A DNA stretch of 64,000 nt from a virus (taxonomy: Duplodnaviria; Heunggongvirae; Uroviricota; Caudoviricetes; Crassvirales). The stretch spans positions 1 through 64,000 of IMG/VR virus record IMGVR_UViG_3300035498_000265; one strand, written 5' to 3'. The notes below the pieces were generated by a model that was not told the DNA's origin, made no database searches, and was given only the letters and a program-made list of their open reading frames with translations. The translations under genes were made by a program, and so were the position numbers. Shown here in pieces: positions 20,288 through 51,856 of this stretch (within the stretch, counting starts at the first letter, position 1; the number at the start of each line of letters is the position of its first letter).

Positions 20288-20367
20288 CAAGCATATAATT
20301 ATAGAAATAAGAATTTCAAGAATTTCAATTCTAAAGTCTCGGTATGTGAATATAGAGACTTTTATAA

Positions 20368-20441: not shown

Positions 20442-20476
20442 CAATTAACTTTAATAAACAAATCAACACAAGAGCA

Positions 20477-20794
20477 ATGAAATGTATTTTTACAGAACAA
20501 GAAGATGCTTTGATTAAGAAAATCCCTGAGAAGCATCTAGGTAATCTCTCTAAAGGCTTTAGAGAGTTAGGCGAACAACTTGGTAGAAGTCCTCAATCTA
20601 TTTCTAGTAGATATTATTATCTTAAGAAGAAGGACAAAAACCAAGGTAACTATAGTTTTATGGTTATCTCTAACAAGCAATTAATTGGTGATAGGAAAAT
20701 AGTACGAGAAAATTGTCCTATAAGACCTATTAAATCCAAAAGAACATGGTTGAAAAATATCCTCGATAGATTATTTGGCAAGAAGGATAAGTAG
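20477..20794 (+). CDS. Small basic DNA-binding-like protein (HTH/Myb-like?), 105 aa; ends at TAG with TAA 8 codons downstream
   Basis: Track ORF; stop codon TAG at 20792-20794 followed by in-frame TAA. Confidence 0.45.
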   Translation: MKCIFTEQEDALIKKIPEKHLGNLSKGFRELGEQLGRSPQSISSRYYYLKKKDKNQGNYSFMVISNKQLIGDRKIVRENCPIRPIKSKRTWLKNILDRLFGKKDK

Positions 20795-21032
20795 TTTAAA
20801 TTATGGAAAAAGTAGTAAAGGTAACTTTCCTAACCGAAGAAAGCCGAGTGTAAAGCACTCCCCCGTATAAGTCTTAAGCCGAAATACTGGCCCCTCATTA
20901 TTTAGAGGCTGGAGGTACAGTAGGAAATAGCAACATTTTTAGGGCTTTGCACTCTCCATAATAATATTAAATTACCAAATACTTATTGTCTAAGAGGTTA
21001 GATGAGCTCAGATTATTCTCTAGTATATACTA

Positions 21033-21391
21033 GGAGTATTTCTGGGCTCTATATTTGGGGTATCATGGTATTGATTGCATATGTATTAGTAGAAGAACAT
21101 GGGGAGGGCATACTCCTAAAATAGCAAACTAAATTTAAACGCAGACACTTATACTACTGCATATGATATGGCTGCTTAAGCCTATCATCGAGTAGCACTT
21201 ACTTTGGAACAGAAAGGTGCAAACACAAACTTCTACAATAATATAAGTAGAATAGATTTCTCTGTTAGATTAAATAGAGTGGTGGAAGACTTCTGGTCAA
21301 CCTTGTGAATAAAACACATTAAAATTGAAAACTATGTATAATTCTTTTATTATGAGTGTGTAAGACGAGGGTTCGACTCCCTCATACTCCA
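21033..21391 (+). ncRNA. ssrA: tmRNA (ssrA-like), about 359 nt, tag peptide A-DTYTTAYDMAA
   Basis: 5-prime GGAGTAT-TTCTGGG... pairs with 3-prime ATACTCC-A following the T-arm GAGGG-TTCGACT-CCCTC; internal frame GCA GAC ACT TAT ACT ACT GCA TAT GAT ATG GCT GCT TAA at 21141-21179; no protein ORF on either strand. Confidence 0.75.
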
Positions 21392-21421
21392 CTAAAACTC
21401 AATTAACTTAAAACCCAGATT

Positions 21422-21892
21422 ATGGAACAAGAACTTAAAATCCCAGAAGGTTGGGAATTTTCTAGAGTAGAGGGTGATAAGATTATCCTCAAAGAAGGAA
21501 GACCTAAGACATGGGAAGACTGTGTTAAAAAAGTAGGCAGTAAAAATCTTGCATATATAAGTAGTGAATCTCAAATCTTAGAGTACAGTCACAAAGAAAG
21601 AGGCTTCATTAAAGAAGCCTTTGATAGTAATCTACTTCCTAAAAAGTATGTACAGCCGATGCTAGCTTTAGCAAAGTTGCTAGTATGCTATAAGGCATGG
21701 GCTAATACTTATGTACCTGATTGGACTAACCCTACACATGATAAATATGGTGTCTGTGTAATTGAAAATAGGCTAAGGGTAGTTAAAAGTGAATTTACTA
21801 GTAAATTATTTACATTCTCCTCTGAGAGCAAATGTAAAGAGTTCCTAGCAGCATTTGAAAGCTTACTTGAACAAGCTAAGCCTTTACTATAA
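21422..21892 (+). CDS. Hypothetical 156-aa protein, paralog A of a tandem pair
   Basis: Track ORF; shares LALAKLLVCYKAW...EQAKPLL with the 22110 ORF. Confidence 0.55.
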   Translation: MEQELKIPEGWEFSRVEGDKIILKEGRPKTWEDCVKKVGSKNLAYISSESQILEYSHKERGFIKEAFDSNLLPKKYVQPMLALAKLLVCYKAWANTYVPDWTNPTHDKYGVCVIENRLRVVKSEFTSKLFTFSSESKCKEFLAAFESLLEQAKPLL

Positions 21893-21936
21893 GGTGGATA
21901 AGTTATAAGAACAAATTGAATTAGGACTTATAGACA

Positions 21937-22104
21937 ATGAGTAATTCAAGTATAAAACACCTTATGACTACCTCTACAAATAAACCTCAATATTTACTTA
22001 CTGAGAAAGATGTTAAAGAACTTGATAAGTTAGTAAAACATGGATGGTTTATTAAACTAAAAGCTGGTTATCGTTATGTAAGATTTAAGATTAATCATAT
22101 TTAA
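21937..22104 (+). CDS. Small basic 55-aa protein
   Basis: ATG...TAA frame MSNSSIKHLMTTSTNKPQYLLTEKDVKELDKLVKHGWFIKLKAGYRYVRFKINHI. Confidence 0.3.
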   Translation: MSNSSIKHLMTTSTNKPQYLLTEKDVKELDKLVKHGWFIKLKAGYRYVRFKINHI

Positions 22105-22109
22105 AGATT

Positions 22110-22592
22110 ATGAACATAAAAGAAATAACCCTCCCTGATAGTTGGATAATAGATAAACAAGAAGGTAATAAACTTATCTTGAAAGAAGATTTGACTAAGT
22201 TAAACACTTGGGAGAGTTGCTTTGATAAACTTTTTTCAGAACAGGGTTTAAGGGTCATTGACTCTGAAGGATTTTTTGCTCTTCCTCATGTTAAAATGAA
22301 ACATAAATCTGTTGGGAAGACCATAATTCCAGTAGAGTATACATACTCAATGTTAGCTTTAATGCAGTTATTAGTTTGTTATAAAGCTTGGATTGGTGAT
22401 TGGAAACCTGATTGGGAGAATGATTGGGAGAGTGACCCATATAAATTTTATATTCGCGCAGATATGTACAGAATAACATTAGGTGCAACTAAAAATGAAT
22501 GGCACATATTCACTTTTCCAACTGAAGAAATGGCTAACAGATTCTTAGATACATTTAAAGCTTTATTAGAGAAAGCAAAACCGTTATTATAA
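22110..22592 (+). CDS. Hypothetical 160-aa protein, paralog B
   Basis: Track ORF; C-terminus ...LLEKAKPLL and core ...LLVCYKAW... match paralog A. Confidence 0.55.
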   Translation: MNIKEITLPDSWIIDKQEGNKLILKEDLTKLNTWESCFDKLFSEQGLRVIDSEGFFALPHVKMKHKSVGKTIIPVEYTYSMLALMQLLVCYKAWIGDWKPDWENDWESDPYKFYIRADMYRITLGATKNEWHIFTFPTEEMANRFLDTFKALLEKAKPLL

Positions 22593-22596
22593 AAAA

Positions 22597-23214
22597 ATGG
22601 AAGAAAGAAATATAAAATTAACTCTTGAGAAGGCTAAAGAGTGGTATAACAGTGATAGTAAAGAACTCAAGGAAGTTGCTTTACAAGCCTTTACAAAAGA
22701 AGAGCTCACTAAAGAGCCCTGGGAAAGAATTAAGACCTTTGAAGATGCTTGTAAATCACTGGGAATTGATTCTTCTTCACTAAATCTATTTGGCGGTTTT
22801 AGCCAAGATATAAGAGACCATCTTTTAGCTGTATATAAACTTGACACCATTAGGAGAGCTCTTAATGGTGATTGGAGGCCCAAACTAACTGAAGGTAAAG
22901 TGTATTACCCTTATGTAGCAATCTACAAGGAATCAGAAGATATTAATCCTAATGGTGCTAGAAGTAGGATTTGCTTTACTACTAACGGTTGTAAAAGGTG
23001 GAAGCTCGTTGGTGGTGCCTATAGCTATTGTGACGATGGGGTTGGCAGCTTCGGTGTGGGTTACGGTAGTGTTAGTGCTTATGCTGGCCTCCTCTGTTGT
23101 AAATCAATAGAAATTGCTAAGCACATGAGCTTGTATTTCCCTAAAGAAATATTTGAAGCTTGTTACTCTCATCTTGGACTTGTAATCTCGTGGGATAAGC
23201 AAGTTATGCTATGA
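22597..23214 (+). CDS. Hypothetical 205-aa protein with Gly/Cys-rich C-terminal segment
   Basis: Track ORF. Confidence 0.5.
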   Translation: MEERNIKLTLEKAKEWYNSDSKELKEVALQAFTKEELTKEPWERIKTFEDACKSLGIDSSSLNLFGGFSQDIRDHLLAVYKLDTIRRALNGDWRPKLTEGKVYYPYVAIYKESEDINPNGARSRICFTTNGCKRWKLVGGAYSYCDDGVGSFGVGYGSVSAYAGLLCCKSIEIAKHMSLYFPKEIFEACYSHLGLVISWDKQVML

Positions 23215-23392
23215 TAGTTTGAGTGAAGCATTTTAAGCTTACATTTATGTGAAGCAACGTAGCTCTTTATTAGTATCGTATTAGACTAACTGTAGTCTCT
23301 TGCAGGAGCTAAATAGAAGAGAGACAACAAGAGTATAATGCAATGTGGGAGGGGATGCTCTCCCCATTGCTTAACAATTAAATTCTCAAGAC

Positions 23393-24517
23393 ATGAAAGT
23401 ACCATCAATGATTTGGTTAAAGAATGGTAGAGAACTTAGCCAAGTCGAAGACTCAATACAAGTAATTGAGGAACTTCCTAAGAAGATATACACTCTGCAA
23501 AAGAAGCCATTATCGGGGGATTTATATTTAGAGGAATTTGCTGATGAGTTTAGTTTTAATTTCAAATTATATGGTATTGAGACTAGATTCATAGAACATG
23601 TTCTAAAGACATTTGAATCCACTAACACTAACTTAGGTGTCCTATTAAATGGTGTAAAGGGTACAGGTAAAACTATTACTGCTAAAATATTAGCTAATAA
23701 GATGAATTTACCTGTAATCCTAGTGAATGGTTATTACGAAGGATTGGCTGAATTTATAGCTAAAATTGAAAGTGATTGCATTTTATTCTTTGATGAATAT
23801 GAAAAAAGATTTGACAAAGAGAGGATGACTGACACTGACATTCTAGCTATAATGGACGGTGTCTTCAATAGCCCTCATAGGAGAGTATTCCTATTAACTA
23901 CCAATAGTCTCTATATTAATGATAATATGATTGGTAGACCATCAAGAATAAGATATAAGAAAACCTTTAGCAATCTTCCTCCTGAAATAGTTAAGGAATA
24001 CCTAGATGATAATTTGATTAACAAAGAGTATACCCAATCAATTATCTCTTATATTGACACTCTAGCTATCTCTACTATTGATATATTAAAAGCAGTAGTA
24101 GATGAATTCAATATCCATAATACTCCTTTGAGTGAATGGAAGAACTTCTTTAACACTGAACCTGCTAGATATACATGGTCTTGTTATGTATACAAGCAAG
24201 ATAGTGATGAAGAATTCTCTAAAGAAGAATTTAAAGAAAAGCTAAATATGCTAGGAACTCTTTATAAAACAAGTGAAGGTAAAGACGATATTTATGGCTT
24301 AGATGACCTTGACTTATGGTGCTCAACAGTGAGAACTAATGAGTCTATCTTTAGTTTAAGAGTAGGTGAAGACTTTGGTCAATATGGCACAATAGTTGAA
24401 GTACTCTTAGATGAAGGTATGGTCATTACTACTGATGATTATAACTCTACATACTATGCAAAGATACTTAATCTAGAAACTAAACCATCTCTATATAGAG
24501 GAGGTCTAGTATTCTAA
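23393..24517 (+). CDS. AAA+ ATPase
   Basis: Walker A GVKGTGKT and Walker B ILFFDEYE in the 374-aa track ORF. Confidence 0.6.
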   Translation: MKVPSMIWLKNGRELSQVEDSIQVIEELPKKIYTLQKKPLSGDLYLEEFADEFSFNFKLYGIETRFIEHVLKTFESTNTNLGVLLNGVKGTGKTITAKILANKMNLPVILVNGYYEGLAEFIAKIESDCILFFDEYEKRFDKERMTDTDILAIMDGVFNSPHRRVFLLTTNSLYINDNMIGRPSRIRYKKTFSNLPPEIVKEYLDDNLINKEYTQSIISYIDTLAISTIDILKAVVDEFNIHNTPLSEWKNFFNTEPARYTWSCYVYKQDSDEEFSKEEFKEKLNMLGTLYKTSEGKDDIYGLDDLDLWCSTVRTNESIFSLRVGEDFGQYGTIVEVLLDEGMVITTDDYNSTYYAKILNLETKPSLYRGGLVF

Positions 24518-24568
24518 AACCTTTTATCGCTAGGCTATCTTACCTCTCTAGGTAGTCTAGCATCGCTT

Positions 24569-24653
24569 GCCCTCATGATGGAATTGGTAGACATGAGAGA
24601 CTTAAAATCTCTTGGTCATTGTGACTGTATGGGTTCAAGTCCCATTGGGGGTA
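24569..24653 (+). tRNA. tRNA-Leu (anticodon TAA), type II
   Basis: Acceptor GCCCTCA/TGGGGGT, Leu-type D-arm GGAATTGGTAGAC, anticodon arm AGAGA-CTTAAAA-TCTCT, variable hairpin GTCA-TTG-TGAC, T-arm ATGGG-TTCAAGT-CCCAT, discriminator A. Confidence 0.75.
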
Positions 24654-24674
24654 CTACCTTAGGAATTTAAATCT

Positions 24675-25118
24675 ATGAGTGAAATTAAAGTCAGACTCAG
24701 CCTTGATGTACAAGGTGCTCAATTGCTGAGCGAGCAGGAGTGCTCTAAAAACCCAAAAGAAAGTTATAATACTGAAATTATCTCTGTTGAAGCTTCCACA
24801 AAGAGTGGAAAGCCTGTTAGAGAGATTCTAACTATTAATACTAGAAAAAATCGAATAATTAAACAATCATTAAACATCTCAAAGGAAGCCTACAACTACT
24901 ATGTCTCAGACAATGAGCCTCCTACAGAAAGGCTCGCTAAGAGAATCTACTTGAAGAAAGAAGTAGGCAAACAACCAAATGGCAAACCTAACAAAGTAAC
25001 TGTTGAGACCACTCTGTGGGCTCAATATACTCCTAAGCAAAGGCTTAATTGGCATATGTCAAAAATAGCTGAAAGCTTAGGTGCTATTGGCTATTCCTTT
25101 GAAATATTAGATGACTAA
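24675..25118 (+). CDS. Hypothetical 147-aa protein
   Basis: Track ORF. Confidence 0.5.
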   Translation: MSEIKVRLSLDVQGAQLLSEQECSKNPKESYNTEIISVEASTKSGKPVREILTINTRKNRIIKQSLNISKEAYNYYVSDNEPPTERLAKRIYLKKEVGKQPNGKPNKVTVETTLWAQYTPKQRLNWHMSKIAESLGAIGYSFEILDD

Positions 25119-25179
25119 TATACAGAGGGGTATAGGTAGTTAATTCTACCTATATTCTTTCTGTACTAATAGAGTTAAC

Positions 25180-25362
25180 ATGGAAGTTATAATATTCTTT
25201 ATTCTATTTATAACCCCTATAATCTGGGCTTATAAATTCTATGAACCTAGACTAGATGTGGTGATTAGTCCTAATAACAAGGTAGTTCTTCTGTGGTATA
25301 ACTCTTGGGATGACTTATACAATTACAAAAGAACGTATAAGAAATTATTTGTCATCAAATAA
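25180..25362 (+). CDS. Small membrane protein, 60 aa
   Basis: Track ORF; hydrophobic N-terminus. Confidence 0.35.
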   Translation: MEVIIFFILFITPIIWAYKFYEPRLDVVISPNNKVVLLWYNSWDDLYNYKRTYKKLFVIK

Positions 25363-25378
25363 AGTTAAACCACTTAAA

Positions 25379-25582
25379 TATAAGATTATGAAGACTGCTT
25401 ACATTCTAGTTGCATGGTTTGTCATAGCTATATTGACTATCAATTTTAGCATAGACTTAATCAATGCTGCAAATACTATTTCTAATATAGTAGGATTATT
25501 CTTACTATTAACGGTGATAGTAGTATCAATTAAAACAAATTGCTTTTTACATCTAACAAAATTAATAAAACCAAGAAAATGA
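25379..25582 (+). CDS. Membrane protein of about 67 aa (two transmembrane helices)
   Basis: Internal ATG of track ORF 25310-25582 (MKTAYILVAWFVIAILTINF...); the upstream part of the track ORF overlaps the previous gene. Confidence 0.35.
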   Translation, partial: YKIMKTAYILVAWFVIAILTINFSIDLINAANTISNIVGLFLLLTVIVVSIKTNCFLHLTKLIKPRK

Positions 25583-26361
25583 AAAAGAAATTTATTATTG
25601 GCCTTATAGGTCTTTTTGTTTGCATGGGTGTATGCTCATGTGAAAGGATTGACGCTGGCCATGAAGGAATCAAAGTTAATCTCTATGGAGATGACAAAGG
25701 TGTTGGAGAAGTGTCTATGTGCACAGGTATGGTGTGCTATAACCCATTTACAACTGCAATCTATGAGTACCCAACATTCGTACAAACTGTAGACTATGAG
25801 CCCTTTACTATCAATGCAAAGGATGGCTCAGAGTTTACTGTAGACCCAACTGTCTCATTGAAGATTGTTGACGGTAAATCACCTGCTGTATTTAAGAAAT
25901 ACAGGAAAGAGCTAAAAGATATTATTAATGGAACTCTATATAATTATGTAAAGAATGCATTTAGGATACAGCTGAATAACTTTACTACTGATTATATTGT
26001 AAGTAACAGGGATTCTATTGAAAATGCTATTGAAAAGTATCTAGCGGCTGATTTGCTAAAAGAGAATTTTCAACTTGAGCAACTTACTTCTGGTCTCAAA
26101 TATCCAGAGACTATTGTCAAGGCTGTAAATGAGAAGAATAGAGCTATTCAAGAGGCCCAAAAAGCTCAGAATGAAGTAGCTGTAGCTGAGGCTCAAGCTA
26201 AGAAACTACTAGTAGCAGCTAATGCAGAGGCTGAAGCTAATAGACTTAAGCAACAAGCTCTTACTCCTCAAATCTTAGAGAAAATGTGGATAGAAAAGTG
26301 GGATGGTAAGTTGCCAGTCTATGGACAAGTCCCCACATTGTTTAAAGACATTACTAAGTGA
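25579..26361 (+). CDS. SPFH/band-7 (HflK/C-, stomatin-like) membrane protein with lipoprotein-like N-terminus
   Basis: Track ORF 25540-26361 trimmed to MKKKFIIGLIGLFVCMGVCSC; central SPFH-like region and Ala/Gln-rich coiled coil (AQKAQNEVAVAEAQAKKLLVAANAEAEANRLKQQAL). Confidence 0.5.
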   Translation: MKKKFIIGLIGLFVCMGVCSCERIDAGHEGIKVNLYGDDKGVGEVSMCTGMVCYNPFTTAIYEYPTFVQTVDYEPFTINAKDGSEFTVDPTVSLKIVDGKSPAVFKKYRKELKDIINGTLYNYVKNAFRIQLNNFTTDYIVSNRDSIENAIEKYLAADLLKENFQLEQLTSGLKYPETIVKAVNEKNRAIQEAQKAQNEVAVAEAQAKKLLVAANAEAEANRLKQQALTPQILEKMWIEKWDGKLPVYGQVPTLFKDITK

Positions 26362-26672
26362 TAGAAGTATTTTACCTAATAGGCTTAGTCACCCTTTTAA
26401 TACAGCTATATGTATTAAAACATACTAAGTATGTTTATACATATGGCTCTTTTAAGAAGAGTGATGAGGAGAACTTAAAGCCTATAAGTATCCCAGTATG
26501 GCATGTAATAGTAGCAATTCTTATAGTATGTATACCTTACGTTGGTGTTATTCTTGAAAATTTGTTTTTCACTCTACGCTGGGTAATTAAGTATGCTGAT
26601 ATAAAAGATGACTACCGTTCATACTATGTCTATTGGAGACTCAGAGACTCATTTTTAACTAAATCAATTTAA
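26358..26672 (+). CDS. Membrane protein, 104 aa
   Basis: Track ORF; two hydrophobic segments. Confidence 0.4.
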   Translation: MIEVFYLIGLVTLLIQLYVLKHTKYVYTYGSFKKSDEENLKPISIPVWHVIVAILIVCIPYVGVILENLFFTLRWVIKYADIKDDYRSYYVYWRLRDSFLTKSI

Positions 26673-27193
26673 TGAAAAAGCTAATCATAGTTCTAAAGAC
26701 TATAATCCCAATAGGTGCAATGCTATCATTCATAATCTACATGTGCACGTTAGAGAGTAAAAGCAATAATCACACACCTACTGAGGAAATAGCTTTAGAT
26801 TCTATACCCACTACTCCTAAGTTCTTCTCACAATCTCCTAGTGAAGGCTTATGGGATGCTTTAATTTACTATGAAATTCAACACCCTGAGATAGTATATG
26901 CTCAAGCTGTACTAGAAACAGGGCACTTTAAATCAAAGGGTTGTAATGAACATAACAACCTCTTTGGTTTATATAATAGTAAAAAGAAAAGCTATCATAA
27001 GTTTAGTCACTGGACAGAAAGTGTGGTAGCTTATAGAGAGTGGATTCAGTATAGGTATAGGTCTCCCACTAACTATTATGAGTTCTTGGAATCTATACAT
27101 TATGCCGAGGACAAAACATATACAACTAAATTAAAAAAGATTGTAAGTAATGGCAAAGTTAAGCAAGATGCAAGCCCAAGCTGTCATCAATAA
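26672..27193 (+). CDS. Signal-anchored glucosaminidase-domain peptidoglycan hydrolase (endolysin-like)
   Basis: N-terminal transmembrane segment; motif AQAVLETGHF...NNLFGL typical of mannosyl-glycoprotein endo-beta-N-acetylglucosaminidase (FlgJ-type) domains. Confidence 0.5.
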   Translation: MKKLIIVLKTIIPIGAMLSFIIYMCTLESKSNNHTPTEEIALDSIPTTPKFFSQSPSEGLWDALIYYEIQHPEIVYAQAVLETGHFKSKGCNEHNNLFGLYNSKKKSYHKFSHWTESVVAYREWIQYRYRSPTNYYEFLESIHYAEDKTYTTKLKKIVSNGKVKQDASPSCHQ

Positions 27194-27560
27194 GCTAGAA
27201 AGAGAGTCTCGAGTACTACGAGAGGCTCTTATCAAAAAGGCTAAGGAGGAATATGTTCTCTCTGGCAAAGCTAAAGAAATAGCTGAGATGATAGAGCGGC
27301 GTGATAAACTTAAAGCAGAAGCTGAATCTATTGCTGAGAATATCAGGAAATCTGCTGAGGACTTAGGTGTAACTGGTGTATACCTATATAGTAAATCAGA
27401 AGAAATCATTGAGAAACTCATAAATAAAGGGGTAGAAGAAAAATACCCTAAAATAGACTTGGAAGCTGCTCTCGATGAGTTAATTATTAAGTCTGTGGAC
27501 GATGTAATCGACATAGATGGATTTATTGAACATTATCTTAAACAAATGAGAAATGGGTGA
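27150..27560 (+). CDS. Coiled-coil protein, 136 aa
   Basis: Track ORF overlapping neighbours by a few codons. Confidence 0.45.
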   Translation: MAKLSKMQAQAVINKLERESRVLREALIKKAKEEYVLSGKAKEIAEMIERRDKLKAEAESIAENIRKSAEDLGVTGVYLYSKSEEIIEKLINKGVEEKYPKIDLEAALDELIIKSVDDVIDIDGFIEHYLKQMRNG

Positions 27561-28734
27561 TAGAGAAGCTGTAAAGGCTGCCATACTTAATATGCCAAAT
27601 AATAACCTGCTCATTGAGCTGCCAACTGGGCATGGTAAGACAGCTGTTGCACTTGAGCTATTAAGAGCTAGATTAGCTCCTAATAGTAAAGTATTAGTCG
27701 TTGTTCCTAGAATAGTATTGAAAAGAAACTTTATGCAGGAAGTAAAAAGATGGTGGCCAGAATGCCAAATTCAATATACACTGACTACATATAGGTCTTT
27801 AGATAAGCACGCTGGAAATTGGGATGCTGTGGTATATGATGAAGCTCATCATTTTACACCTAGATGCCAAGAAGCTGCTAAGAAGATAAATAGTAAAAAT
27901 TCAATACTTCTTTCTGCTACAGTCTCACAAAGGCTAAAAGAATCACTGAGTAAATTATTCAGTAATCTAGGTCTTTATAAGAGAACTGTAAAGGAGGCTA
28001 TAGACAATGGAGTTTTACCAGACCCCAAGGTTTATCTGTTACCTCTAGAGCTAGATAATACTCTAGAACTAGAAACTATCATTAAGAACCCTAAGTGTCT
28101 ACAGGAAGTTCATGTATCTTGGAAAAATAGGTGGCAATACCTAGGAAGAAAAGATATAAGAATTTGCATACATTGTACTAAGAAGCAATTTATGCTAGAC
28201 CTAGATGGACAAATTAATTGGTGGAAAGAAAAGTTCCAGAGAACTAGACAAGAGTCATTTAAGAATCAATGGCTCAAGCTTTGTGGTAATAGATTAAAGA
28301 TATTGAGTAATTGGAGAACATCTAATTCAACTGAAATACTTAAGTATCTCAAGAATTATAGGACACTAACTTTCTGTAATAGTATTGAGCACACTGAAGT
28401 ATTAGGTAAATACTGTGTTAATAGTAAGAATAAGATGTATCTTAATATACTTGATGACTTTAATAGTGGTAGAATTAAGCATATAACTGCATGTAATATG
28501 CTTAATGAAGGTGTTAATTTGGTAAATTGTAGAATTGGTATCTATGCAGTTTTGAATAGCTCAGAAACTCTCATAAAACAGAAACTAGGAAGGTTATTAA
28601 GACATGAACATCCTATTCTCATAGTCCCTTATTACGTAGGCACTAGAGAAGAAGAGATTGTTAAGACGATGCTCCAGGATTATAATCCTGACCTAGTGTC
28701 TGTGGTTAAAGATGTTAAAGATATAGTTTTATGA
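27553..28734 (+). CDS. Superfamily-2 DEAH-box helicase
   Basis: Motif I PTGHGKT and motif II VVYDEAHHF. Confidence 0.6.
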   Translation: MGDREAVKAAILNMPNNNLLIELPTGHGKTAVALELLRARLAPNSKVLVVVPRIVLKRNFMQEVKRWWPECQIQYTLTTYRSLDKHAGNWDAVVYDEAHHFTPRCQEAAKKINSKNSILLSATVSQRLKESLSKLFSNLGLYKRTVKEAIDNGVLPDPKVYLLPLELDNTLELETIIKNPKCLQEVHVSWKNRWQYLGRKDIRICIHCTKKQFMLDLDGQINWWKEKFQRTRQESFKNQWLKLCGNRLKILSNWRTSNSTEILKYLKNYRTLTFCNSIEHTEVLGKYCVNSKNKMYLNILDDFNSGRIKHITACNMLNEGVNLVNCRIGIYAVLNSSETLIKQKLGRLLRHEHPILIVPYYVGTREEEIVKTMLQDYNPDLVSVVKDVKDIVL

Positions 28735-29324
28735 GATTAACTATCGATGAAAGAGTGTTAGCTGAAAATAATCTAACTTTAGATGAATTCCTCATACTAT
28801 TATTTAACTCTAGAGAAGCTGATATTAAAAAGAATATTGAGTCTCTAGTGAATAAAGGATGGGCTGAGAGAGATTTGTTTGAAGAAAATAGAGTAGTGCT
28901 GAGTGATAACATTAGGCAGAAAGTTGCTGATATAGTTATTGACTCAGAGCAGCTAGCACAGAATAATCAAGACAACTTTGAAGCTCTAGCTAGGAAACTA
29001 ATGGAAGTTTATCCTGAAGGTAGAAAAGCAGGAACAACTTACTATTGGAGAGGCAGTGTCTCAGAAGTAGCAAGAAAGCTTAAGAACTTAGTAGTTAAAT
29101 ATAATTGTAAGTTTACTGAACAACAAGCTATAGAAGCAACTAAAGCTTATGTAACTTCTTTCAATGGAGACTACAAATTTATGAAACTATTGAAGTATTT
29201 CTTGTTAAAAGCTCCCAAGAATAACAATGGAGATATTGAGATTGAGTCTGAATTTATGACATACTTAGAAAATAAGGATGTTATAGAGGCAGCTGGGGGA
29301 GACTGGACAACTGACTTAGTATGA
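28731..29324 (+). CDS. Hypothetical 197-aa protein
   Basis: Track ORF; translationally coupled (ATGA overlap). Confidence 0.5.
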   Translation: MRLTIDERVLAENNLTLDEFLILLFNSREADIKKNIESLVNKGWAERDLFEENRVVLSDNIRQKVADIVIDSEQLAQNNQDNFEALARKLMEVYPEGRKAGTTYYWRGSVSEVARKLKNLVVKYNCKFTEQQAIEATKAYVTSFNGDYKFMKLLKYFLLKAPKNNNGDIEIESEFMTYLENKDVIEAAGGDWTTDLV

Positions 29325-31212: not shown

Positions 31213-31223
31213 TAAACTAACAT

Positions 31224-31607: not shown

Positions 31608-31609
31608 AC

Positions 31610-33734: not shown

Positions 33735-33785
33735 GCTTTAATTATAATAGGGAGTCTTAGGACTCCCTTAACTGTTTTTTTTTGT

Positions 33786-36748: not shown

Positions 36749-36749
36749 T

Positions 36750-40177: not shown

Positions 40178-40198
40178 TCTTTAAATATAATAACAACA

Positions 40199-44662: not shown

Positions 44663-45345
44663 AAGTATTAATCGTACCTGATGTTCATGGTAGATTATTC
44701 TGGAGAAAAGCTAAAGAATTAGTAAAAGAATATAAGCAGATTGTTTTCCTAGGAGACTACTTAGACCCTTATCCCGTTGAGGGTATAACTCCTAGGGAAG
44801 CTTTCTCTGAGTTCAAAGACATAATTGAATTTAAGAAAGCTTATCCTAAGAAAGTAACATTGTTACTAGGCAATCACGACTTACATTATTACTTTACTGA
44901 TTTTATATCTAGTACTAGAAAGAACTACCTAGACTTGGATGAATACCATAAGTTCTTCGTTGATAACAGAGAGCTATTTACATGCTTTAAAGTTATCAAC
45001 TCATATAAGAATAAGTGGGTTTTATCTCATGCTGGAATATCTATACCATGGTTAAATCAGAATAATTTGAGCTTAACTAAGTTATTTAAAACTCCCTTAA
45101 TAGAGTTAAAGTCTGCATTAGAGCAGGTATGCTCTTGGAGAGGGGGCTATGACAATTATAGTAGCCCTGTATGGTTAGATATTCATGAGGCTGTTGACGA
45201 TAATATGCTATTAGGGTGCAATGTAACTCAGATAGTTGGGCATAACCAAGTAGGTAATATTTCCAACTTTAATGGGATTACATTCGTAGACTTAAGAAAC
45301 CTAATTTCACTAGATACAAAAACAAAGAAAATAGATTTTGTATGA
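44659..45345 (+). CDS. Calcineurin-like metallophosphoesterase
   Basis: Motifs VPDVHG, GDYLD and GNHD. Confidence 0.6.
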   Translation: MKVLIVPDVHGRLFWRKAKELVKEYKQIVFLGDYLDPYPVEGITPREAFSEFKDIIEFKKAYPKKVTLLLGNHDLHYYFTDFISSTRKNYLDLDEYHKFFVDNRELFTCFKVINSYKNKWVLSHAGISIPWLNQNNLSLTKLFKTPLIELKSALEQVCSWRGGYDNYSSPVWLDIHEAVDDNMLLGCNVTQIVGHNQVGNISNFNGITFVDLRNLISLDTKTKKIDFV

Positions 45346-45442
45346 AGACTAAAGAATTATTCACTACTACAAACGGTAGATTAATCCTAGTTTATGCTGC
45401 ATTCCTAGGGTACTTACTTGGAGTAGTTTATGGGGCTCTAAG

Positions 45443-45904
45443 ATGAAATACACAGATGCTAAAGTAACCTTTGCTGAAGTCCCTGATGAAATAGCTCTCT
45501 GCATAAATATATCTAATTGTCCTTGCCATTGTGTAGGCTGTCATAGCTCATACTTAGCAGAGGACATCGGTGAACCCCTTGATGAGGATGTTCTTGCAAA
45601 GTTAATTGATGACAATGAAGGAATAACTTGTGTTGCCTTTATGGGAGGAGATGCAGAGCCTAATATAATTCTTGAATTAGCTAGGTTCATTAGAGCTATT
45701 TATACTAGGATAAAGGTAGCTTGGTATAGTGGTAGAGATAAACTGCCTAATATTATTGAAGATGAGATAGATATGTTTGACTTCATTAAATTAGGCCCTT
45801 ATATCGAGGAACTTGGCCCCTTAAATGAGACAACTACTAATCAAAGATTCTATAAAGTAGTTGAGGATAAACTAGTGGATATAACCCACAAATTTTGGAG
45901 ATAA
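45443..45904 (+). CDS. nrdG: Anaerobic RNR activating enzyme (radical SAM)
   Basis: Cys motif CPCHCVGCHS; size and position next to nrdD. Confidence 0.55.
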   Translation: MKYTDAKVTFAEVPDEIALCINISNCPCHCVGCHSSYLAEDIGEPLDEDVLAKLIDDNEGITCVAFMGGDAEPNIILELARFIRAIYTRIKVAWYSGRDKLPNIIEDEIDMFDFIKLGPYIEELGPLNETTTNQRFYKVVEDKLVDITHKFWR

Positions 45905-45908
45905 AATT

Positions 45909-46460
45909 ATGGTAGAAGTAAAAGTTAAAGTCTTTAATGGTCAGAAGTTACCTACTATTATTAAGAAGGGAGACTGGATTGATTTATCAATCAATGAGGA
46001 TATTCATTTAGAAGCCCCTCAAGCAGGTATACTTAGAAAAGACAGAAATGACGATGGTGAATTAGTGCAACATAGAGATGTAATTCTCAAAGTAAACTAT
46101 TTGCCATTAGGAGTAGCTATGAAATTACCTAAAGGGTATGAAGCACATATAGTATCTAGGAGTAGTACTCCTAAGAAATATGGAGTTATGTGTGCTAACT
46201 CTATAGGTATCATAGATAACTCATACTCTGGTGACAATGATGAGTGGAAATACCCAGCTATTGCCATTAGAGAGACTGACATTAAGAAAGGAACTAGAAT
46301 ATGTCAGTTTAGAATTCAACTTAGTCAGAAAGCTACTATGTGGCAAAAGATTAAGTGGTTCTTTAGCTCTGGTGTTAAGCTAGTTAAAGTTTACCAATTA
46401 GATAGCACAGATAGGTCTGGCTTAGGTAGCACTAGTGACTCAGAGTTTGTAAATCCTTAA
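45909..46460 (+). CDS. dUTPase/dCTP-deaminase family protein
   Basis: Beta-rich 183 aa with GIIDNSYSGD motif-3-like segment. Confidence 0.45.
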   Translation: MVEVKVKVFNGQKLPTIIKKGDWIDLSINEDIHLEAPQAGILRKDRNDDGELVQHRDVILKVNYLPLGVAMKLPKGYEAHIVSRSSTPKKYGVMCANSIGIIDNSYSGDNDEWKYPAIAIRETDIKKGTRICQFRIQLSQKATMWQKIKWFFSSGVKLVKVYQLDSTDRSGLGSTSDSEFVNP

Positions 46461-46474
46461 CATAAACCTGAAAA

Positions 46475-46975
46475 ATGATTTTAGAAATAGTAATAACCTT
46501 AATAGCAGTAGTAGCCATAGGACTTATGGTGAACTTTAGTGAAAATAAGATAAAAAGGAATAGCAGGAAAATTTCCTTTAAAGAGTCTATGGACTTAGCA
46601 GAGCTTCCTATTGTGACTTTTTATCAAGGAGATAAGAAGTTTAACTTCTTACTAGACACTGGAAGTAATTATTCACATATAAGTAAAGAGGCTGCTGCTG
46701 AATTGGTTGGTGAAGTACAAGCATCTGAAGGTCAAGTCTCTGGCATTGGAGGTGAGAAAGCAGATGTATTCTCAGGAGTATGTAAAACTGTATTAACTTA
46801 TAAGAATGAGCAATTTGACATTGAATTATGCATTGGTGAGCATTTAAATGACACTTTTAGTGCTATTAAAGCTGAAACTGGTGTACAAGTACATGGTTTA
46901 ATTGGTAATAAGTTCTTCCAGAGATATAAGTACATACTAGACTTTGAGGAGCTTGTAGCTTACACTAAGAAATAG
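46475..46975 (+). CDS. Membrane-anchored retropepsin-like aspartic protease; ends at TAG with TGA 8 codons downstream
   Basis: N-terminal transmembrane helix, catalytic FLLDTGSNYSHIS (D-T/S-G) motif. Confidence 0.45.
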   Translation: MILEIVITLIAVVAIGLMVNFSENKIKRNSRKISFKESMDLAELPIVTFYQGDKKFNFLLDTGSNYSHISKEAAAELVGEVQASEGQVSGIGGEKADVFSGVCKTVLTYKNEQFDIELCIGEHLNDTFSAIKAETGVQVHGLIGNKFFQRYKYILDFEELVAYTKK

Positions 46976-46982
46976 CGAGCCT

Positions 46983-47237
46983 ATGGAAAAATCCTATGAG
47001 TTAATAAGTAGAGACAATGACATTTACACCCTTGAAAGAGTTGGCGGAGTTAGCTCCAAGCAATACTCTCTTAAGGGTGTTACTCATCTAAGATTTGGCA
47101 GAAACATAATGGGTGAAATAGTCTTTGTAGACCCCAGTGGTGGCCCTTATATAGGAGTAGATAGAATCTTAGAAGGTATAGGTAAAGTGTCAGATATAAG
47201 TAATACTAATAAAAGTATACTGATAACATTCAAATAA
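46983..47237 (+). CDS. Hypothetical 84-aa protein
   Basis: Track ORF. Confidence 0.4.
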   Translation: MEKSYELISRDNDIYTLERVGGVSSKQYSLKGVTHLRFGRNIMGEIVFVDPSGGPYIGVDRILEGIGKVSDISNTNKSILITFK

Positions 47238-49450
47238 TGAGTCAGATATATCTAGTTACAGGGCAAAAGCAATTATTTGATAATGATACTTATAAAATTA
47301 TAAGTGTTGAAGATTCATTAAGGTTGCTTAAGCCATTAGTAAAGGTAGGATTAGATACTGAGACTGAGGGATTCTCCCCTTTTCTTAAGAAGCTATTGTT
47401 ACTTCAACTAGGTAATAGAGACTTTCAAGTTGTTGTTGATTGTACTACAATAGATATTCAATCCTACAAAGAATACCTAGAATCAGAGAGACTATTCATT
47501 GGATGGAATTTAAAGTTTGATGTTAAATTCCTATTCTATCATAATATTATACCAAAGAACCTCTATGATGGCTTTTTAGCAGAAAAAATGAGGTGGTTAG
47601 GCTGGCCTTCAGGTATGCACTCACTCAGTCTTAAATCAGCAGGTGAGAATTACCTAGGAGTTGAACTTGATAAGACTGTCAGAGGTCAGATTATATGGAG
47701 GAAAGAGTTGACTGATGAGATAGTAGAATATGCTGCTAATGACGTTAAATATCTAGAAGATATTATGGATAAGCAGACAGAGATACTATATGCAAGAGGT
47801 CAAAAGCTAGCTCTAGAGGTAGAGAATAAAGCTATCCTTCCTACTGCATACTTTGAGTTTTGCGGAGTTAAGCTTGACGTTGAAAGGTGGAAGGCTAAAA
47901 TGAGCAAAGATGAGGAGGCCTTGCAGAAAGCTCAGGATGAACTTGATAAGTTTGTTGTGGATTTATATGAAGCTAACAAGAGTAACTTAAGTGGATTCTG
48001 GGTTGAAGATTGGTATGATTTTAATAATGGCTCACCTAGTGGTAAATGGAAACCAGCTATTGAAACTGAGAATTCTCCTGAAGCTCCGTTCTTTGATAAA
48101 ACAGAGGGTGATTGGCAGTATATCAGTAGGGAGTTCCCATTCATTGAGGTAGCTCAACCTGACTTATTTGGATTTACTACCCCTGGCCCTAAGTGTAAAG
48201 TAAATTGGAATAGTTCTAGACAGGTAATTCCTTTGCTTGAGTTCTTCGGCTTTGACCTTTTAACTAGGGATAAAGTCAATGGTGGAATGAAGAAGTCTGT
48301 GGATGCTACAGTGATTGAAGGACAAAGAGATAAGCATCCTATTGCTGATGTTTACTTAAGGTTTAAAGCTGCACAGAAGGTAACTAGTACCTATGGACAG
48401 AATTTCCTAGACCTTATTAATCCTAAGACAGGTAGAATACATACTTCATTCAATCAAATAGGAACAGATACACATAGATATAGCTCAGGTGGTGGTGATG
48501 ATAAAGAGGTTATCCCAGGCAAGAAAGTGCCATTGGTAAATCTACAGAACCTTCCTGCTGATGCTGAGACTAGAGCTTGCTTTATATCTGATAAAGGCAA
48601 TAAGTGGATTAGCGCAGACTATAGTGGTGAAGAGTCAGTAATCTTAGCTAATATAGCCAAGGATGAAGCTATGATTGAGCTATTCTTACATGGTTGTGGA
48701 GACTTGCATAGTCTAGTAGCTAAGATGGTTTATCCTGATGAGCTTAAGGATGTCCCTGTAGAGAAGGTTAAGAAACTTAGACCTGATTTAAGGAAGAAAG
48801 CAAAGGCTCCTGAGTTTACATTTGCTTATGGTGGTGATGCTAATACCTTGATAGGTAGAGACCATATACCAGAGGATGAAGCTAGAGCTATTGAAGATAA
48901 CTACAAAAAAGGCTTCCCTGGTGTAGCAGCTTATCAAGCTAATCAGAGGAAACTAGTAATGCAATTAGGTTATATTAATACCTGTCCAGAGGTAGGTTAT
49001 AGAGCTCATATATATGACTTTGAAGACCTAGATAGGACTCAAAAGAAATTTAATCAGGAGTTCTGGGCAAAGTATAGAAACCTTAAAGCAACTAATCCAT
49101 ATGACCCTCTTGTTGAAGAAGTGAGACACTATTTCAAGAGGAAATCAGCCTCTGAAAGACAATCTATCAACTACCCGATTCAATCCAGGGGGTCAGCAGT
49201 GTTCAAGATAGCAGCAGTTAACTTGTTTAACTGGGTTGTTAAGAACAATTTGTTTGGGGTTGTAAAATTCTGTATACCTGCACACGATGAATTTAACATT
49301 GAAGCCCCTGCTGAAATAGCAGAGGAGGTAGCTAATAAACTTCATGAGTGTATGATAAATGCAGGTAAGTTTATCTGTAAAATTGTTCCTCTTGAGGCTG
49401 AAGTGTCAAGGTTAAAAGATGGAACTTTACCAACTTATTGGATACATTAA
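47237..49450 (+). CDS. Family A DNA polymerase with 3-prime-5-prime exonuclease domain
   Basis: Exo I DTETEG; 737 aa; polymerase motifs (KAKAPEFTFAYGG, NYPIQSRGSAV, PAHDEF). Confidence 0.65.
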   Translation: MSQIYLVTGQKQLFDNDTYKIISVEDSLRLLKPLVKVGLDTETEGFSPFLKKLLLLQLGNRDFQVVVDCTTIDIQSYKEYLESERLFIGWNLKFDVKFLFYHNIIPKNLYDGFLAEKMRWLGWPSGMHSLSLKSAGENYLGVELDKTVRGQIIWRKELTDEIVEYAANDVKYLEDIMDKQTEILYARGQKLALEVENKAILPTAYFEFCGVKLDVERWKAKMSKDEEALQKAQDELDKFVVDLYEANKSNLSGFWVEDWYDFNNGSPSGKWKPAIETENSPEAPFFDKTEGDWQYISREFPFIEVAQPDLFGFTTPGPKCKVNWNSSRQVIPLLEFFGFDLLTRDKVNGGMKKSVDATVIEGQRDKHPIADVYLRFKAAQKVTSTYGQNFLDLINPKTGRIHTSFNQIGTDTHRYSSGGGDDKEVIPGKKVPLVNLQNLPADAETRACFISDKGNKWISADYSGEESVILANIAKDEAMIELFLHGCGDLHSLVAKMVYPDELKDVPVEKVKKLRPDLRKKAKAPEFTFAYGGDANTLIGRDHIPEDEARAIEDNYKKGFPGVAAYQANQRKLVMQLGYINTCPEVGYRAHIYDFEDLDRTQKKFNQEFWAKYRNLKATNPYDPLVEEVRHYFKRKSASERQSINYPIQSRGSAVFKIAAVNLFNWVVKNNLFGVVKFCIPAHDEFNIEAPAEIAEEVANKLHECMINAGKFICKIVPLEAEVSRLKDGTLPTYWIH

Positions 49451-49715
49451 TATGAAACCAAAAGCAGTAAAAGTAGAACTAAATAGGGTAACTCCTAATG
49501 GTTCTAGTGGTACAGGTTACGATGAACCTTGTAACTTTAAAATATACCTAGACAATGGAGAAGTTCTTAAGAGGACAATCTATGATTGGTATAGACCCTA
49601 TGGTGAAACAATAAACTCTATAAAAGAGATGTGTATAGCTATACCAGCTTCTAATCTATTAGAGGTAATGGATATGGCATTAGATGCATGGAAAGCTGAC
49701 GTTAGTTTAGATTAA
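49419..49715 (+). CDS. Hypothetical 98-aa protein
   Basis: Track ORF. Confidence 0.4.
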   Translation: MELYQLIGYINMKPKAVKVELNRVTPNGSSGTGYDEPCNFKIYLDNGEVLKRTIYDWYRPYGETINSIKEMCIAIPASNLLEVMDMALDAWKADVSLD

Positions 49716-49725
49716 ATTATTTAAA

Positions 49726-50157
49726 ATGGAAGAGTATATTTGCACAAAAGATTTCTGCTTTGAAGATGTAATATTTGCTAAAGTTGGCGATACTATAGTA
49801 GTATTACCTGATAAGAAGACAGTAGTAAACAAGGCTACTAAATCAGTGATATCTAATCCTGAGTTAGTAAAGGACAAAAGATATTTCTCTAAAGTCCCTA
49901 AATCAGATAGGGTAAATCATCCATCACATTATACTTGGCTTAAAGAAAAATGTGGCATTGAAGTTATTGATATTACAAGGCATCTTGACTTTGATAAGGG
50001 CAATGCTGTCAAATATCTACTTAGGTCAGGCTATAAGATTGAGGAAGGCTTATCTATGGTTAACAAAGAGATTGAAGACTTGAGAAAAGCTATTTGGTAC
50101 ATCCAGGACAAAATAAATGAACTAGAAAAGTATGCTAAATACAAGTACCAAAACTAA
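49726..50157 (+). CDS. Hypothetical 143-aa protein
   Basis: Track ORF. Confidence 0.45.
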   Translation: MEEYICTKDFCFEDVIFAKVGDTIVVLPDKKTVVNKATKSVISNPELVKDKRYFSKVPKSDRVNHPSHYTWLKEKCGIEVIDITRHLDFDKGNAVKYLLRSGYKIEEGLSMVNKEIEDLRKAIWYIQDKINELEKYAKYKYQN

Positions 50158-50301
50158 AGCAAAGGCAGCCCTAAAGCTATATAATCAGATTAATAGTTAC
50201 TTACTTGAACAAGAGTTTGAGGAACTAGCTGGTAATCCTATAGCTAAGATGTCTTTGAAGCAAGCAGCTCAATGTCTTGCTAAGATAATTAGGAGAGAAC
50301 A

Positions 50302-50469
50302 TGGCTGAGTATATACTATGTAACAATTGTAAAAAGTTAATTGAATATAAGCCCGAAATTCATTATGAGGGAGGGATAACTTATAAGAAGTTAACTTGCC
50401 CTGAGTGTGGACACACAGAGATAACTAATCAGAACCATATTCACTATGGTGATGATGGTAAGAAATAAA
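50302..50469 (+). CDS. Zn-ribbon protein, 55 aa (CNNC...CPEC)
   Basis: ATG...TAA frame MAEYILCNNCKKLIEYKPEIHYEGGITYKKLTCPECGHTEITNQNHIHYGDDGKK. Confidence 0.35.
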
Positions 50470-50471
50470 TA

Positions 50472-50654
50472 ATGAGGCAATACACTCAGAGAGAGTTTAT
50501 AAAAGTAGTAAGAGCTAATGGTTTCTGTTACAAAAGAAGTAGGGGAGACCATAGCATTTATTACAATGAAAGAGGAAGACATATTAGTATTCCTAGGAAT
50601 CTCAAATGTGTAATAGCCAGAAGATTAATTAAGGAAAATAGCTTAAAAGTTTAA
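50472..50654 (+). CDS. HicA-like (YcfA family) small RNA-binding or toxin-like protein
   Basis: 60 aa with the GDHSIYYNERG...ISIP pattern characteristic of HicA. Confidence 0.4.
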   Translation: MRQYTQREFIKVVRANGFCYKRSRGDHSIYYNERGRHISIPRNLKCVIARRLIKENSLKV

Positions 50655-50657
50655 CAT

Positions 50658-50921
50658 ATGAAAATAATTAAATTCTATACTAAGACTTGTGGTCAATGTA
50701 AGGCTCTAAGTAGAGCTTTAGAGGACTTCAATCTTATTCCTATTGAGTCTGTAGACTGTGAGGAAGACCCAGAAGAACTTAGTATTAAGTTCCAAATACG
50801 GAGTCTACCTACATTAGTTATAGTAGATTCTAAAGGTGAATTCCTTAGAAAAATAACTGGTGTTATCACTAAAGATTCACTAGAGACTATAGTCAAATCT
50901 GAACTAGAACACGAAGACTAA
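50658..50921 (+). CDS. Glutaredoxin/NrdH-like thioredoxin-fold protein
   Basis: CGQC redox motif in an 87-aa ORF. Confidence 0.5.
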   Translation: MKIIKFYTKTCGQCKALSRALEDFNLIPIESVDCEEDPEELSIKFQIRSLPTLVIVDSKGEFLRKITGVITKDSLETIVKSELEHED

Positions 50922-51856
50922 TGAGACTTATAAAATCTTCAGTGGAATTATTGCCACAGAAACCTGGTATACAAGGTATACTAGAGCAAATAGAATTAGC
51001 TGCTAGGACTTGCTATAAGAGTGAGAACAACATTAAATATGATGAAGAAGGTAATTCTTTAACTGCTAAAGACTTTGTAGATAAGATAGTTAATGTCTAT
51101 AAACATCAGTCAGTGGCAGAGCATGGCACTGTATATTTACTTCTTACTACCCCTATACAAAATTTAGAGGAGTATGAAGCTATAGCAGACTTCTATAATA
51201 AAAATCCTTTTTCAGTAGTATACAAGGTAGAGTCAGGTTATGGTGTAGGTCTAGCTCCTAATTATAAATCCAATAACCAGGGGAGAACTTGTTATTATAT
51301 AACTACAAACTACAGAGTATTGTTAGAAAATAACAGGTTAGACGATTTACAATATCTTTGTAACCCTACAGAGTACCATCAGAAAAGAGTAACTATAAGA
51401 GTTAAATGCCCTATTTCAGTATCTAGAGAGTGGAATAGGCACAGGAGTCTCTCTATAAGTGAACAATCTACTAGATATTGTAATTATAGTAAGGATAAAT
51501 TTGGTAATGAGCTTACCTTTTGTATTCCTTATTGGACTCCTGACTTAAAACCTACAGAAGATGCATTTGACATTGATTATGTAGAGAGTGCAAGTCACAA
51601 AAGTAGGAAGTTCTTATGTAATTTATTTAAAGCAGAGGTGGATTACTTAGAATATACTACTGATGATGGTTTAAAACCTCAAGAAGTTAGGGAAATACTC
51701 CCCTTATGTACAGCTACAGAAGTTGTATATACAGGTTTTATAAGTGATTGGAATCACTTCTTTAGTCTTAGAGCTCCAATGAGAGGAGCTAAGAATGTTC
51801 ACCCTGAAATAGCCAAGCTTGCAGATGCAGCTTGTCAAATGATACAATGTTGTTAG
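50921..51856 (+). CDS. thyX: Flavin-dependent thymidylate synthase ThyX; ends at TAG with TGA 4 codons downstream
   Basis: ThyX signature RHRSLSISEQS. Confidence 0.65.
   Translation: MRLIKSSVELLPQKPGIQGILEQIELAARTCYKSENNIKYDEEGNSLTAKDFVDKIVNVYKHQSVAEHGTVYLLLTTPIQNLEEYEAIADFYNKNPFSVVYKVESGYGVGLAPNYKSNNQGRTCYYITTNYRVLLENNRLDDLQYLCNPTEYHQKRVTIRVKCPISVSREWNRHRSLSISEQSTRYCNYSKDKFGNELTFCIPYWTPDLKPTEDAFDIDYVESASHKSRKFLCNLFKAEVDYLEYTTDDGLKPQEVREILPLCTATEVVYTGFISDWNHFFSLRAPMRGAKNVHPEIAKLADAACQMIQCC

Follow-up and report, generated by a model that had tools for sequence, protein, structure and literature searches.

Four genes in the replication block of the phage analyzed here end in TAG, a codon that its late genes read as glutamine, and each is closely followed by a second in-frame stop. 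We asked whether these second stops are selected backups. Had they been selected, they would represent the first sequence-level sign that recoded phages shield their early proteome against the suppressor tRNA they themselves encode. The analysis was based on a window of 64,000 nucleotides (the whole stretch of DNA) and on related loci. It indicates that the backup stops after TAG are very probably an ordinary by-product of the sequence, with unselected spacing, in a phage that follows a known split-code strategy.

The source is a gut crAss-like phage (Crassvirales) in which TAG is read as Gln in the late genes and the replication block keeps the standard code. The late (morphogenesis) genes at 1..11545 on the minus strand carry in-frame TAGs, including a portal-like gene (5197-7602, minus strand) with 15 and the large terminase (7677-9950, minus strand) with 16. 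In the larger genes of this segment, TAG accounts for 32-71% of the Gln codons. In-frame TAGs are also abundant in the plus-strand late genes from 52 kb, for example in the partial giant gene that follows the virion RNA polymerase (RNAP) gene (60018..64000, plus strand; 32 TAG out of 60 Gln codons), and taking TAG as sense raises the coding coverage from 0.63 to 0.75. At the terminase TAG positions, Gln is the commonest homolog residue at 10 of 16 and invariant at five, with some of these homologs possibly being code-15 calls. For the RNAP, the presence of Q at TAG positions in 'full-length' database homologs was rejected as proof, since these homologs are code-15 calls of recoded genomes and the argument is circular. 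The verified standard-code relative L084 was therefore used instead; it has Q at 9 of the 12 C-terminal RNAP columns that hold TAG in the others.

A suppressor tRNA with anticodon CUA was detected at 13242..13330 on the minus strand by ARAGORN, with 59.7 bits against the Rfam tRNA model. It is 89 nt long, has an unusually long variable region and is presumably charged with Gln. The gene belongs to a tRNA array (12877-15699) and occupies the 5' end of the leftward late unit, upstream of that unit's genes. Its free-energy fold did not reproduce the cloverleaf and is uninformative. The in-frame TAGs of the late genes, their alignment with Gln and this tRNA bear out the premise of an earlier note on this DNA that TAG is readable as sense in the phage. 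Gene order, the literature and the transcription classes of phage phi14:2 suggest that suppression would set in late. Such a code split is already known and not new; late-gene recoding under code 15 (TAG to Gln) has been described in crAss-like phages (PMC7886860, Yutin et al. 2021; 10.1101/2021.08.26.457843, Borges et al. 2021; PMC9523058, Peters et al. 2022). The window resembles those phages in its in-frame TAGs confined to late structural genes, in the alignment of TAG with Gln, in the position of tRNA(CUA) ahead of the recoded genes and in a replication module in the standard code. It shows no essential difference from them, the unusual length of its suppressor tRNA aside.

The standard-code replication and nucleotide-metabolism block (16549..51856, plus strand) comprises 54 genes, called as ORFs with no gene model used, and none of the 54 has an internal TAG. 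Pfam matches in the block include AAA ATPase, SNF2/DEAD helicase, DnaB-like helicase, Toprim primase, UDG and PDDEXK nuclease, as well as NrdD, dUTPase, PolA and ThyX; a scan of 28 early proteins revealed neither a release factor nor an aminoacyl-tRNA synthetase. The genes (plus strand, 16.5-52 kb) stop at TAA in 33 cases, at TGA in 17 and at TAG in 4, in line with the earlier statement that almost all early genes stop at TAA or TGA (50 of 54). Code-11 and code-15 stops thus coincide in 50 of the 54 genes and are offset by 24, 36, 24 and 15 nt in the four TAG genes.

This layout corresponds to the 'dual-coded' early genes of Mgcod (Pfennig et al., 10.1101/2022.06.29.495998), which yield near-identical proteins under codes 11 and 15 in a 'soft switch', and for which stops less than 30 nt apart count as equivalent isoforms. 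Three of the four TAG genes lie inside this tolerance, and the gene ending at 38100 (36 nt) falls just beyond the default; the block is dual-coded by the Mgcod definition. The preprint already covers the descriptive content of the earlier observation. It claims no selection on short extensions, however, and the adaptive claim goes further, without support in the phage studied here.

All four TAG-terminated ORFs are genuine genes on the plus strand. The Myb-like DNA-binding gene (20477..20794) ends at TAG 20792, followed by a second TAG at +7 and by TAA at +8 (20816). The class-II glutamine amidotransferase gene (36750..38102) ends at TAG 38100, with TAA at +12 (38136), and its 3' end overlaps the next gene, an amidoligase starting at 38071, by 32 nt. 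The aspartyl-protease gene (46475..46975) ends at TAG 46973 with TGA at +8 (46997), and thyX (50921..51856) at TAG 51854 with TGA at +5 (51869). The positions given in the earlier note are correct; only its thyX distance of four codons needs amending, since four sense codons lie between the two stops, which makes +5 when counted as at the other three sites.

To judge these distances, the 50 TAA- or TGA-terminated genes of the same 54-gene block served as controls. The median distance to the next TAA or TGA was 8 codons for the four TAG stops and likewise 8 for the control stops, 68% of which had one within 12 codons. A Mann-Whitney test for shorter distances after TAG gave p=0.53 (n=4 vs n=50), and four randomly drawn genes all had their next stop within 12 codons with a permutation probability of 0.23; a naive geometric null for the four TAG spacings gave 0.066. 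No excess of near backup stops over chance was found after TAG in the window (4 vs 50 genes). The earlier note had interpreted the backup stops as an adaptation and had itself named equal distances at TAA- and TGA-terminated genes as the observation that would speak against this. The comparison was carried out and equal distances were found in the window, so the claim fails on its own terms.

A selected fail-safe, limiting readthrough after the onset of suppressor tRNA expression, is therefore very unlikely, with the control genes of the window lying at the same distances, even though all four window cases fall within 12 codons. Tandem stops in other systems lend it plausibility by analogy. 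In tandem or fail-safe stops, e.g., those of Pyl-using archaea, the logic is the same, as a near second stop limits the extension where a stop is sometimes sense; extension lengths after TAG have been tabulated for amber in Pyl-using archaea (PMC12626013). The defining signature of such systems is a shorter distance after the ambiguous stop, and this was tested in the phage of the window and is absent.

The comparison was extended to the clade of the window, which has no close relative among GenBank phages. Its best GenBank match, cr116_1 (Steigviridae, Asinivirinae), shows 36% identity over the RNAP and seems to have been annotated under the standard code. A PolA query against IMG/VR recovered one short contig, and the RNAP-core alignment A1 found no match in IMG/VR or in JGI metagenomes. 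The same-clade sample consisted of 11 confidently TAG-recoded early-block segments (the window plus L081-83, L085-88 and L090-92) with 219 unique early ORFs, 18 of them TAG-terminated and 201 controls. Distances to the next stop after TAG ranged from 1 to 172 codons, with a median of 16.5 (n=18) vs 8 in the controls (n=201; p=0.97 for 'TAG shorter'), values that may be inflated where the relatives' 'TAG-terminated' ORFs are intron-split exons or carry sense TAGs. The six longest TAG distances include several from ORFs that are split by introns or may contain sense TAGs; without these six, the recalculated median was 10.

Distant TAG-recoded loci likewise gave a median of 17 codons after TAG vs 9 for controls. 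These come from 80 pooled thyX-centred IMG/VR loci and serve as supporting evidence only, because they represent only about three independent TAG-recoded lineages and sense TAGs contaminate the 'TAG-terminated' class. The mirror test, on TGA stops in TGA-recoded loci, was null. Distances after TAG are thus longer in the larger same-clade sample and in the distant lineages, not shorter as a fail-safe would predict. The smallest and cleanest subset, the window plus seven RNAP-linked loci, trends in the direction of a fail-safe (median 6.5 after TAG, n=8, vs 8; p=0.24), and a weak shortening is possible at these sample sizes. A nearer unambiguous stop after TAG than after TAA or TGA, i.e., the backup-stop signature, is absent in the window, in the clade and in the distant loci.

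Orthologs of the four genes point in the same direction. In close recoded relatives, all four have orthologs that terminate at roughly the corresponding residue with TAA or TGA and whose next stops are equally near. In L090 and L091 the Myb-like ortholog stops at TAA, and the class-II glutamine amidotransferase orthologs in L090-L092 have TAA or TGA within 1-3 codons of the window stop position. Aspartyl-protease orthologs share the end residue and stop at TAA or TGA in 28 of 29 cases; in seven close relatives the stop is TGA and the next stop lies at +6. The 79 thyX orthologs use TAA in 59 cases, TGA in 11 and TAG in 9. The TAG terminator is not conserved at the four genes, and a backup stop is not tied to TAG termination across the orthologs, both of which argue against a fail-safe.

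The same orthologs make it scarcely credible that the four terminal TAGs are Gln codons and the tails of 4-11 residues functional parts of the proteins. TAG is sense elsewhere in this genome, and Mgcod (10.1101/2022.06.29.495998) counts such genes as two isoforms. However, the orthologs lack the tails and have TAA or TGA exactly or almost exactly at the corresponding residue, the TAG lies beyond complete Pfam domains, and the glutamine amidotransferase tail runs into the next gene out of frame.

Selection could instead have acted on the choice of terminator rather than on the backup distance, with TAG stops either undergoing removal from the early block or scarce even before recoding, and the remaining four being recent, lineage-specific substitutions. 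We consider this a real possibility, if somewhat short of an even one. TAG makes up 8.2% of early stops in the clade vs 14.1% in crAss loci without signs of recoding (p=0.019), close relatives have TAA or TGA in place of each of the four window TAG stops, and TAG loss in low-GC relatives has been described as a precursor of recoding (Borges et al., 10.1101/2021.08.26.457843). On the other hand, the window alone shows no significant depletion (4/54 vs 136/966, p=0.22), and the comparison set is heterogeneous and ORF-called. The mild depletion of TAG stops in early blocks suggests that some selection on TAG terminators may exist, not on backup distance. This view is compatible with unselected spacing and does not compete with it.

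Under the preferred explanation, in which the spacing is a by-product, the early block is written to read almost alike under the standard code and code 15, and in the late genes TAG serves as a Gln codon read by the phage tRNA(CUA), whose gene heads the late operon. That four early genes out of 54 end in TAG would be chance. With the suppressor active, their products would be lengthened by 4-11 residues before the next TAA or TGA, short C-terminal extensions that are probably harmless. AT-rich intergenic and overlapping-start sequence supplies an in-frame TAA or TGA at a median of 8 codons beyond any stop; in an AT-rich genome such as this (35% G+C), readthrough is normally capped early. No dedicated protection is then needed, as readthrough meets a stop within about 8 codons by default, and the spacing figures quantify why the published 'dual-coded / soft switch' layout costs the phage little. 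The control design, with TAG compared to TAA and TGA stops inside the same blocks and complemented by an ortholog check, is reusable.

The giant virion-RNAP gene (52019..60013, plus strand) is a single frame of 2664 codons with TAGs only in codons 1-327 and 2572-2609. It carries the motif DFDVD (crAss-like hallmark DFDxD), and its core matches PDB 6VR4 (phi14:2 gp66) with E=3e-18. In the window, the core is free of TAG from a conserved Met at 53264 to 59731; TAG 59732, which follows, is read as sense. An ORF at 53027-59734 (2235 codons, TAG-free, ending in TAG, next TAA 93 codons on) was considered as a fifth TAG-terminated gene, one without a backup, and rejected because homologs extend about 80-150 residues beyond it, ending near the window TAA at 60011, and L084 has Gln at this position.

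Across eight TAG-recoded genomes of the clade, the RNAP core (about 2150 codons) is TAG-free among about 600 Gln codons; in the other late genes TAG makes up about 42% of Gln codons. RNAP TAGs are confined to the divergent N-terminal 330-450 codons or so and to the last 92-95 codons approximately. The core is bounded in all eight by an invariant Met (53264 in the window) and an invariant TAG (59732), and a second C-terminal TAG is common to six of them. The leader before Met 53264 is A-rich and lacks a Shine-Dalgarno sequence.

From this sequence pattern we tentatively propose, as a rather doubtful reading, that TAG could act as a stage-dependent terminator at the virion-RNAP gene, with a stand-alone core made first and an extended form after suppression. 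If so, the standard code would yield a core RNAP of the length of phi14:2 gp66, and suppression an N- and C-extended RNAP, perhaps the packaged form. Alternatively, the core may be TAG-free because transcription genes are a known low-amber domain, with the shared TAG inherited by descent. The TAG-bounded pattern inside the RNAP gene may be new and points to a code boundary within this gene.

The window (35% G+C, 64 kb) is organized in two divergent arms. The leftward arm, on the minus strand from ~16.1 kb down to position 1, comprises an array of 17 tRNAs (12877–15699) and, beyond it, genes that the standard code breaks into fragments. The ORFs of the rightward arm, on the plus strand starting at 16.5 kb, are long and intact. 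Once TAG is read as sense, long genes are restored on the minus strand, including those for a portal-like protein (801 codons, 15 TAGs) and the large terminase (758 codons, 16 TAGs), and likewise on the plus strand from 52 kb. Glutamine was the commonest homolog residue at 10 of the 16 terminase TAG sites and invariant at 5. Because some database homologs are code-15 translations of recoded genomes, i.e., with TAG already read as Gln, a relative verified to use the standard code (L084) served as a check; it encodes Gln at 9 of the 12 C-terminal RNA polymerase (RNAP) columns that show TAG in recoded genomes. The giant plus-strand protein matches the solved virion RNAP of the crAss-like phage phi14:2 (6VR4, E = 3e-18), and cr116_1, a Crassvirales phage, is the closest record in GenBank. 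The window therefore belongs to a crAss-like phage with TAG as Gln in its late genes, an arrangement already known in this group. A tRNA with anticodon CUA was detected by ARAGORN and Rfam at 13242–13330 (minus strand), inside the tRNA array that precedes the recoded genes. The premise of the earlier note, that TAG becomes readable, is thus borne out and was known before.

This tRNA measures 89 nt and has a variable region of ~20 nt, resembling class-II tRNAs even though TAG aligns with Gln, and its first pair is U1–A72. No tRNA-Gln with a normal anticodon was found in the window's tRNA array. The early block of this TAG-reading phage also encodes a tmRNA (Rfam, 73.7 bits) at 21057–21394 (plus strand), with the tag peptide ADTYTTAYDMAA. 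A connection is conceivable with ribosomes that run off host mRNAs once their stops have been read through; a literature search found tmRNA hardly discussed for Crassvirales.

The plus-strand block holding the TAG-terminated early genes encodes helicases, primase, UDG, NrdD, dUTPase, PolA and an amidoligase cluster, and corresponds to the replication module, the early class in phi14:2. A mechanical gene call yielded 54 genes in this block, with 33 TAA, 17 TGA and 4 TAG stops and no internal TAG. The four TAGs lie at 20792, 38100, 46973 and 51854 (thyX), as previously noted, and terminate genes for a Myb-like DNA-binding protein, a class-II glutamine amidotransferase, an aspartyl protease and ThyX. 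The next in-frame TAA or TGA follows at +8, +12, +8 and +5 codons, so the nearby stops exist, the thyX figure having been off by one in the earlier numbering.

The observation is accurate, yet the pattern does not exceed chance. The 50 TAA- or TGA-terminated genes of the same block have their next TAA/TGA at a median of 8 codons (within 12 codons in 68%), and the TAG-terminated genes are no closer (median 8 vs. 8; Mann–Whitney 'shorter' p = 0.53). All four genes fell within 12 codons in 23% of random draws of four block genes, and a geometric model based on base composition gave 0.066. Local shuffles gave next-stop medians of 11–14, and random block positions a median of 16, i.e., farther than after genes. 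AT-rich spacers and overlapping starts likely cause the near downstream stops. Across the block (16400–52000, plus strand), the median is 8 codons whichever stop codon ends the gene. The earlier note had itself listed such an outcome as a refutation of its idea.

The comparison was extended to relatives. Among 80 thyX-centred IMG/VR loci, ~8 were TAG-recoded and 6 TGA-recoded. Outside clearly recoded genes, TAG-terminated ORFs (pooled, de-duplicated) had a median of 17 codons vs. 9 for the others, in a locus set contaminated by sense TAGs; the mirror test for TGA in the TGA-recoded loci was null. Closer, confidently TAG-recoded genomes were found via RNAP and DnaB-like proteins, giving a clade sample of the window plus ten TAG-recoded segments with 219 unique early ORFs. 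Here, the 18 TAG-terminated ORFs (distances 1, 2, 3, 5, 8, 8, 12, 16, 16, 17, 17, 21, 25, 26, 35, 68, 124 and 172) were not nearer to the next stop than the 201 controls (median 16.5 vs. 8; 'shorter' p = 0.97). The six longest distances include several from ORFs that are intron-split or may contain sense TAGs, and the median without these six is 10. The small RNAP-linked subset alone trended shorter (6.5 vs. 8; n = 8, p = 0.24); a weak shortening effect after TAG is possible, and the data give no support for one.

In close recoded relatives, orthologs of all four genes end in TAA or TGA at the equivalent residue or very close to it, with next stops near; the aspartyl protease, for example, ends in TGA in seven relatives, with the next stop at +6. 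The four TAGs are thus genuine, lineage-specific terminators, and a nearby second stop is present whichever terminator is in use. With spacing equal in the window, not shorter in the clade and equally near in orthologs, the proposal that the second stops are an adaptation capping readthrough is unsupported. Early-block TAG stops are somewhat rarer in the clade (8.2%) than in crAss loci not looking recoded (14.1%, p = 0.019), in line with reports that TAG loss precedes recoding. That early genes read nearly alike in both codes, gaining short extensions at most, has already been described under the terms 'dual-coding' and 'soft switch', and Borges et al. saw legitimate TAG terminators as short C-terminal extensions; neither work claims selected backup stops.

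Two further observations concern early genes of the relatives. In several of them (L082, 4028–7112; L085, 2862–6235; L087, 1536–4909), a LAGLIDADG-encoding insertion, either an intron or an intein, interrupts PolA, and the upstream exon ends in TAG; the PolA of the window (47237–49450) is intact. In another recoded relative (L091, 18305–19604), the early-block COOH–NH2 ligase region consists of short TAG-ended ORFs whose frames stay open for long stretches past the TAG, so that its 'standard-code' block may have acquired sense TAGs.

A genetic-code boundary lies inside the virion-RNAP gene (52019–60013, plus strand), a single frame of 2664 codons without TAA or TGA. Its first 336 codons include 17 for Gln, 8 of them TAG; the following 2235 include 84, none of them TAG, and the final 94 include 5, of which 2 are TAG. 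The absence from the core has a probability of ~1e-20, given that TAG represents ~42% of Gln codons in other late genes. Seven further recoded genomes (L081–L083, L085–L088) share this layout, with cores 66–92% identical, each containing 70–78 Gln codons and no TAG. Over the ~2150-codon core, the eight genomes together have 0 TAG in ~600 Gln codons; within this gene their TAGs are found only in the divergent ~330–450 codons at the N-terminal end, where they are scattered, and likewise in the final ~92. The TAG-free core (53264–59731, plus strand) opens at an invariant Met (nt 53264, within 'DKMLEQI'), is co-linear with phi14:2 gp66 and about equal to it in length, and ends at an invariant TAG (nt 59732, residue 2572), where L084 has Gln. 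Common descent may account for this shared TAG, as 6 of the 8 genomes also have a second C-terminal TAG in common. The leader before the core Met is 53–70% A, and no Shine–Dalgarno sequence was found in it.

On one reading of this layout, a standard-code core RNAP would be made early and an extended RNAP once suppression begins. More conservatively, the core is TAG-free because transcription genes are part of the known low-amber domain. In phi14:2, the RNAP module is of the middle class, with transcription continuing late. RNAP ORFs in three TGA-recoded crAss loci (L025, L028, L051; 2462–3080 aa visible) lack in-frame TGA, paralleling the TAG-free core of the window's clade.

Inside the replication block, genes for ATP-grasp, peptidase C26, a phiEco32-like COOH–NH2 ligase, the class-II glutamine amidotransferase and amidoligase form a cluster (33786–39513, plus strand), kept in three relatives (L090–L092), which may serve to ligate peptides or metabolites. 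The thyX gene (50921–51856) is mosaic: one contig (L001) combines a PolA 93% identical to that of the window with a ThyX at just 43%, and no TAG recoding is seen up to 10 kb from thyX in its best match (L005, 69%). Some close terminase homologs (P0025, P0026, P0028, P0038 and P0039) of ~1090 aa carry Hint/LAGLIDADG domains and thus contain an intein, from which the window's terminase is free.
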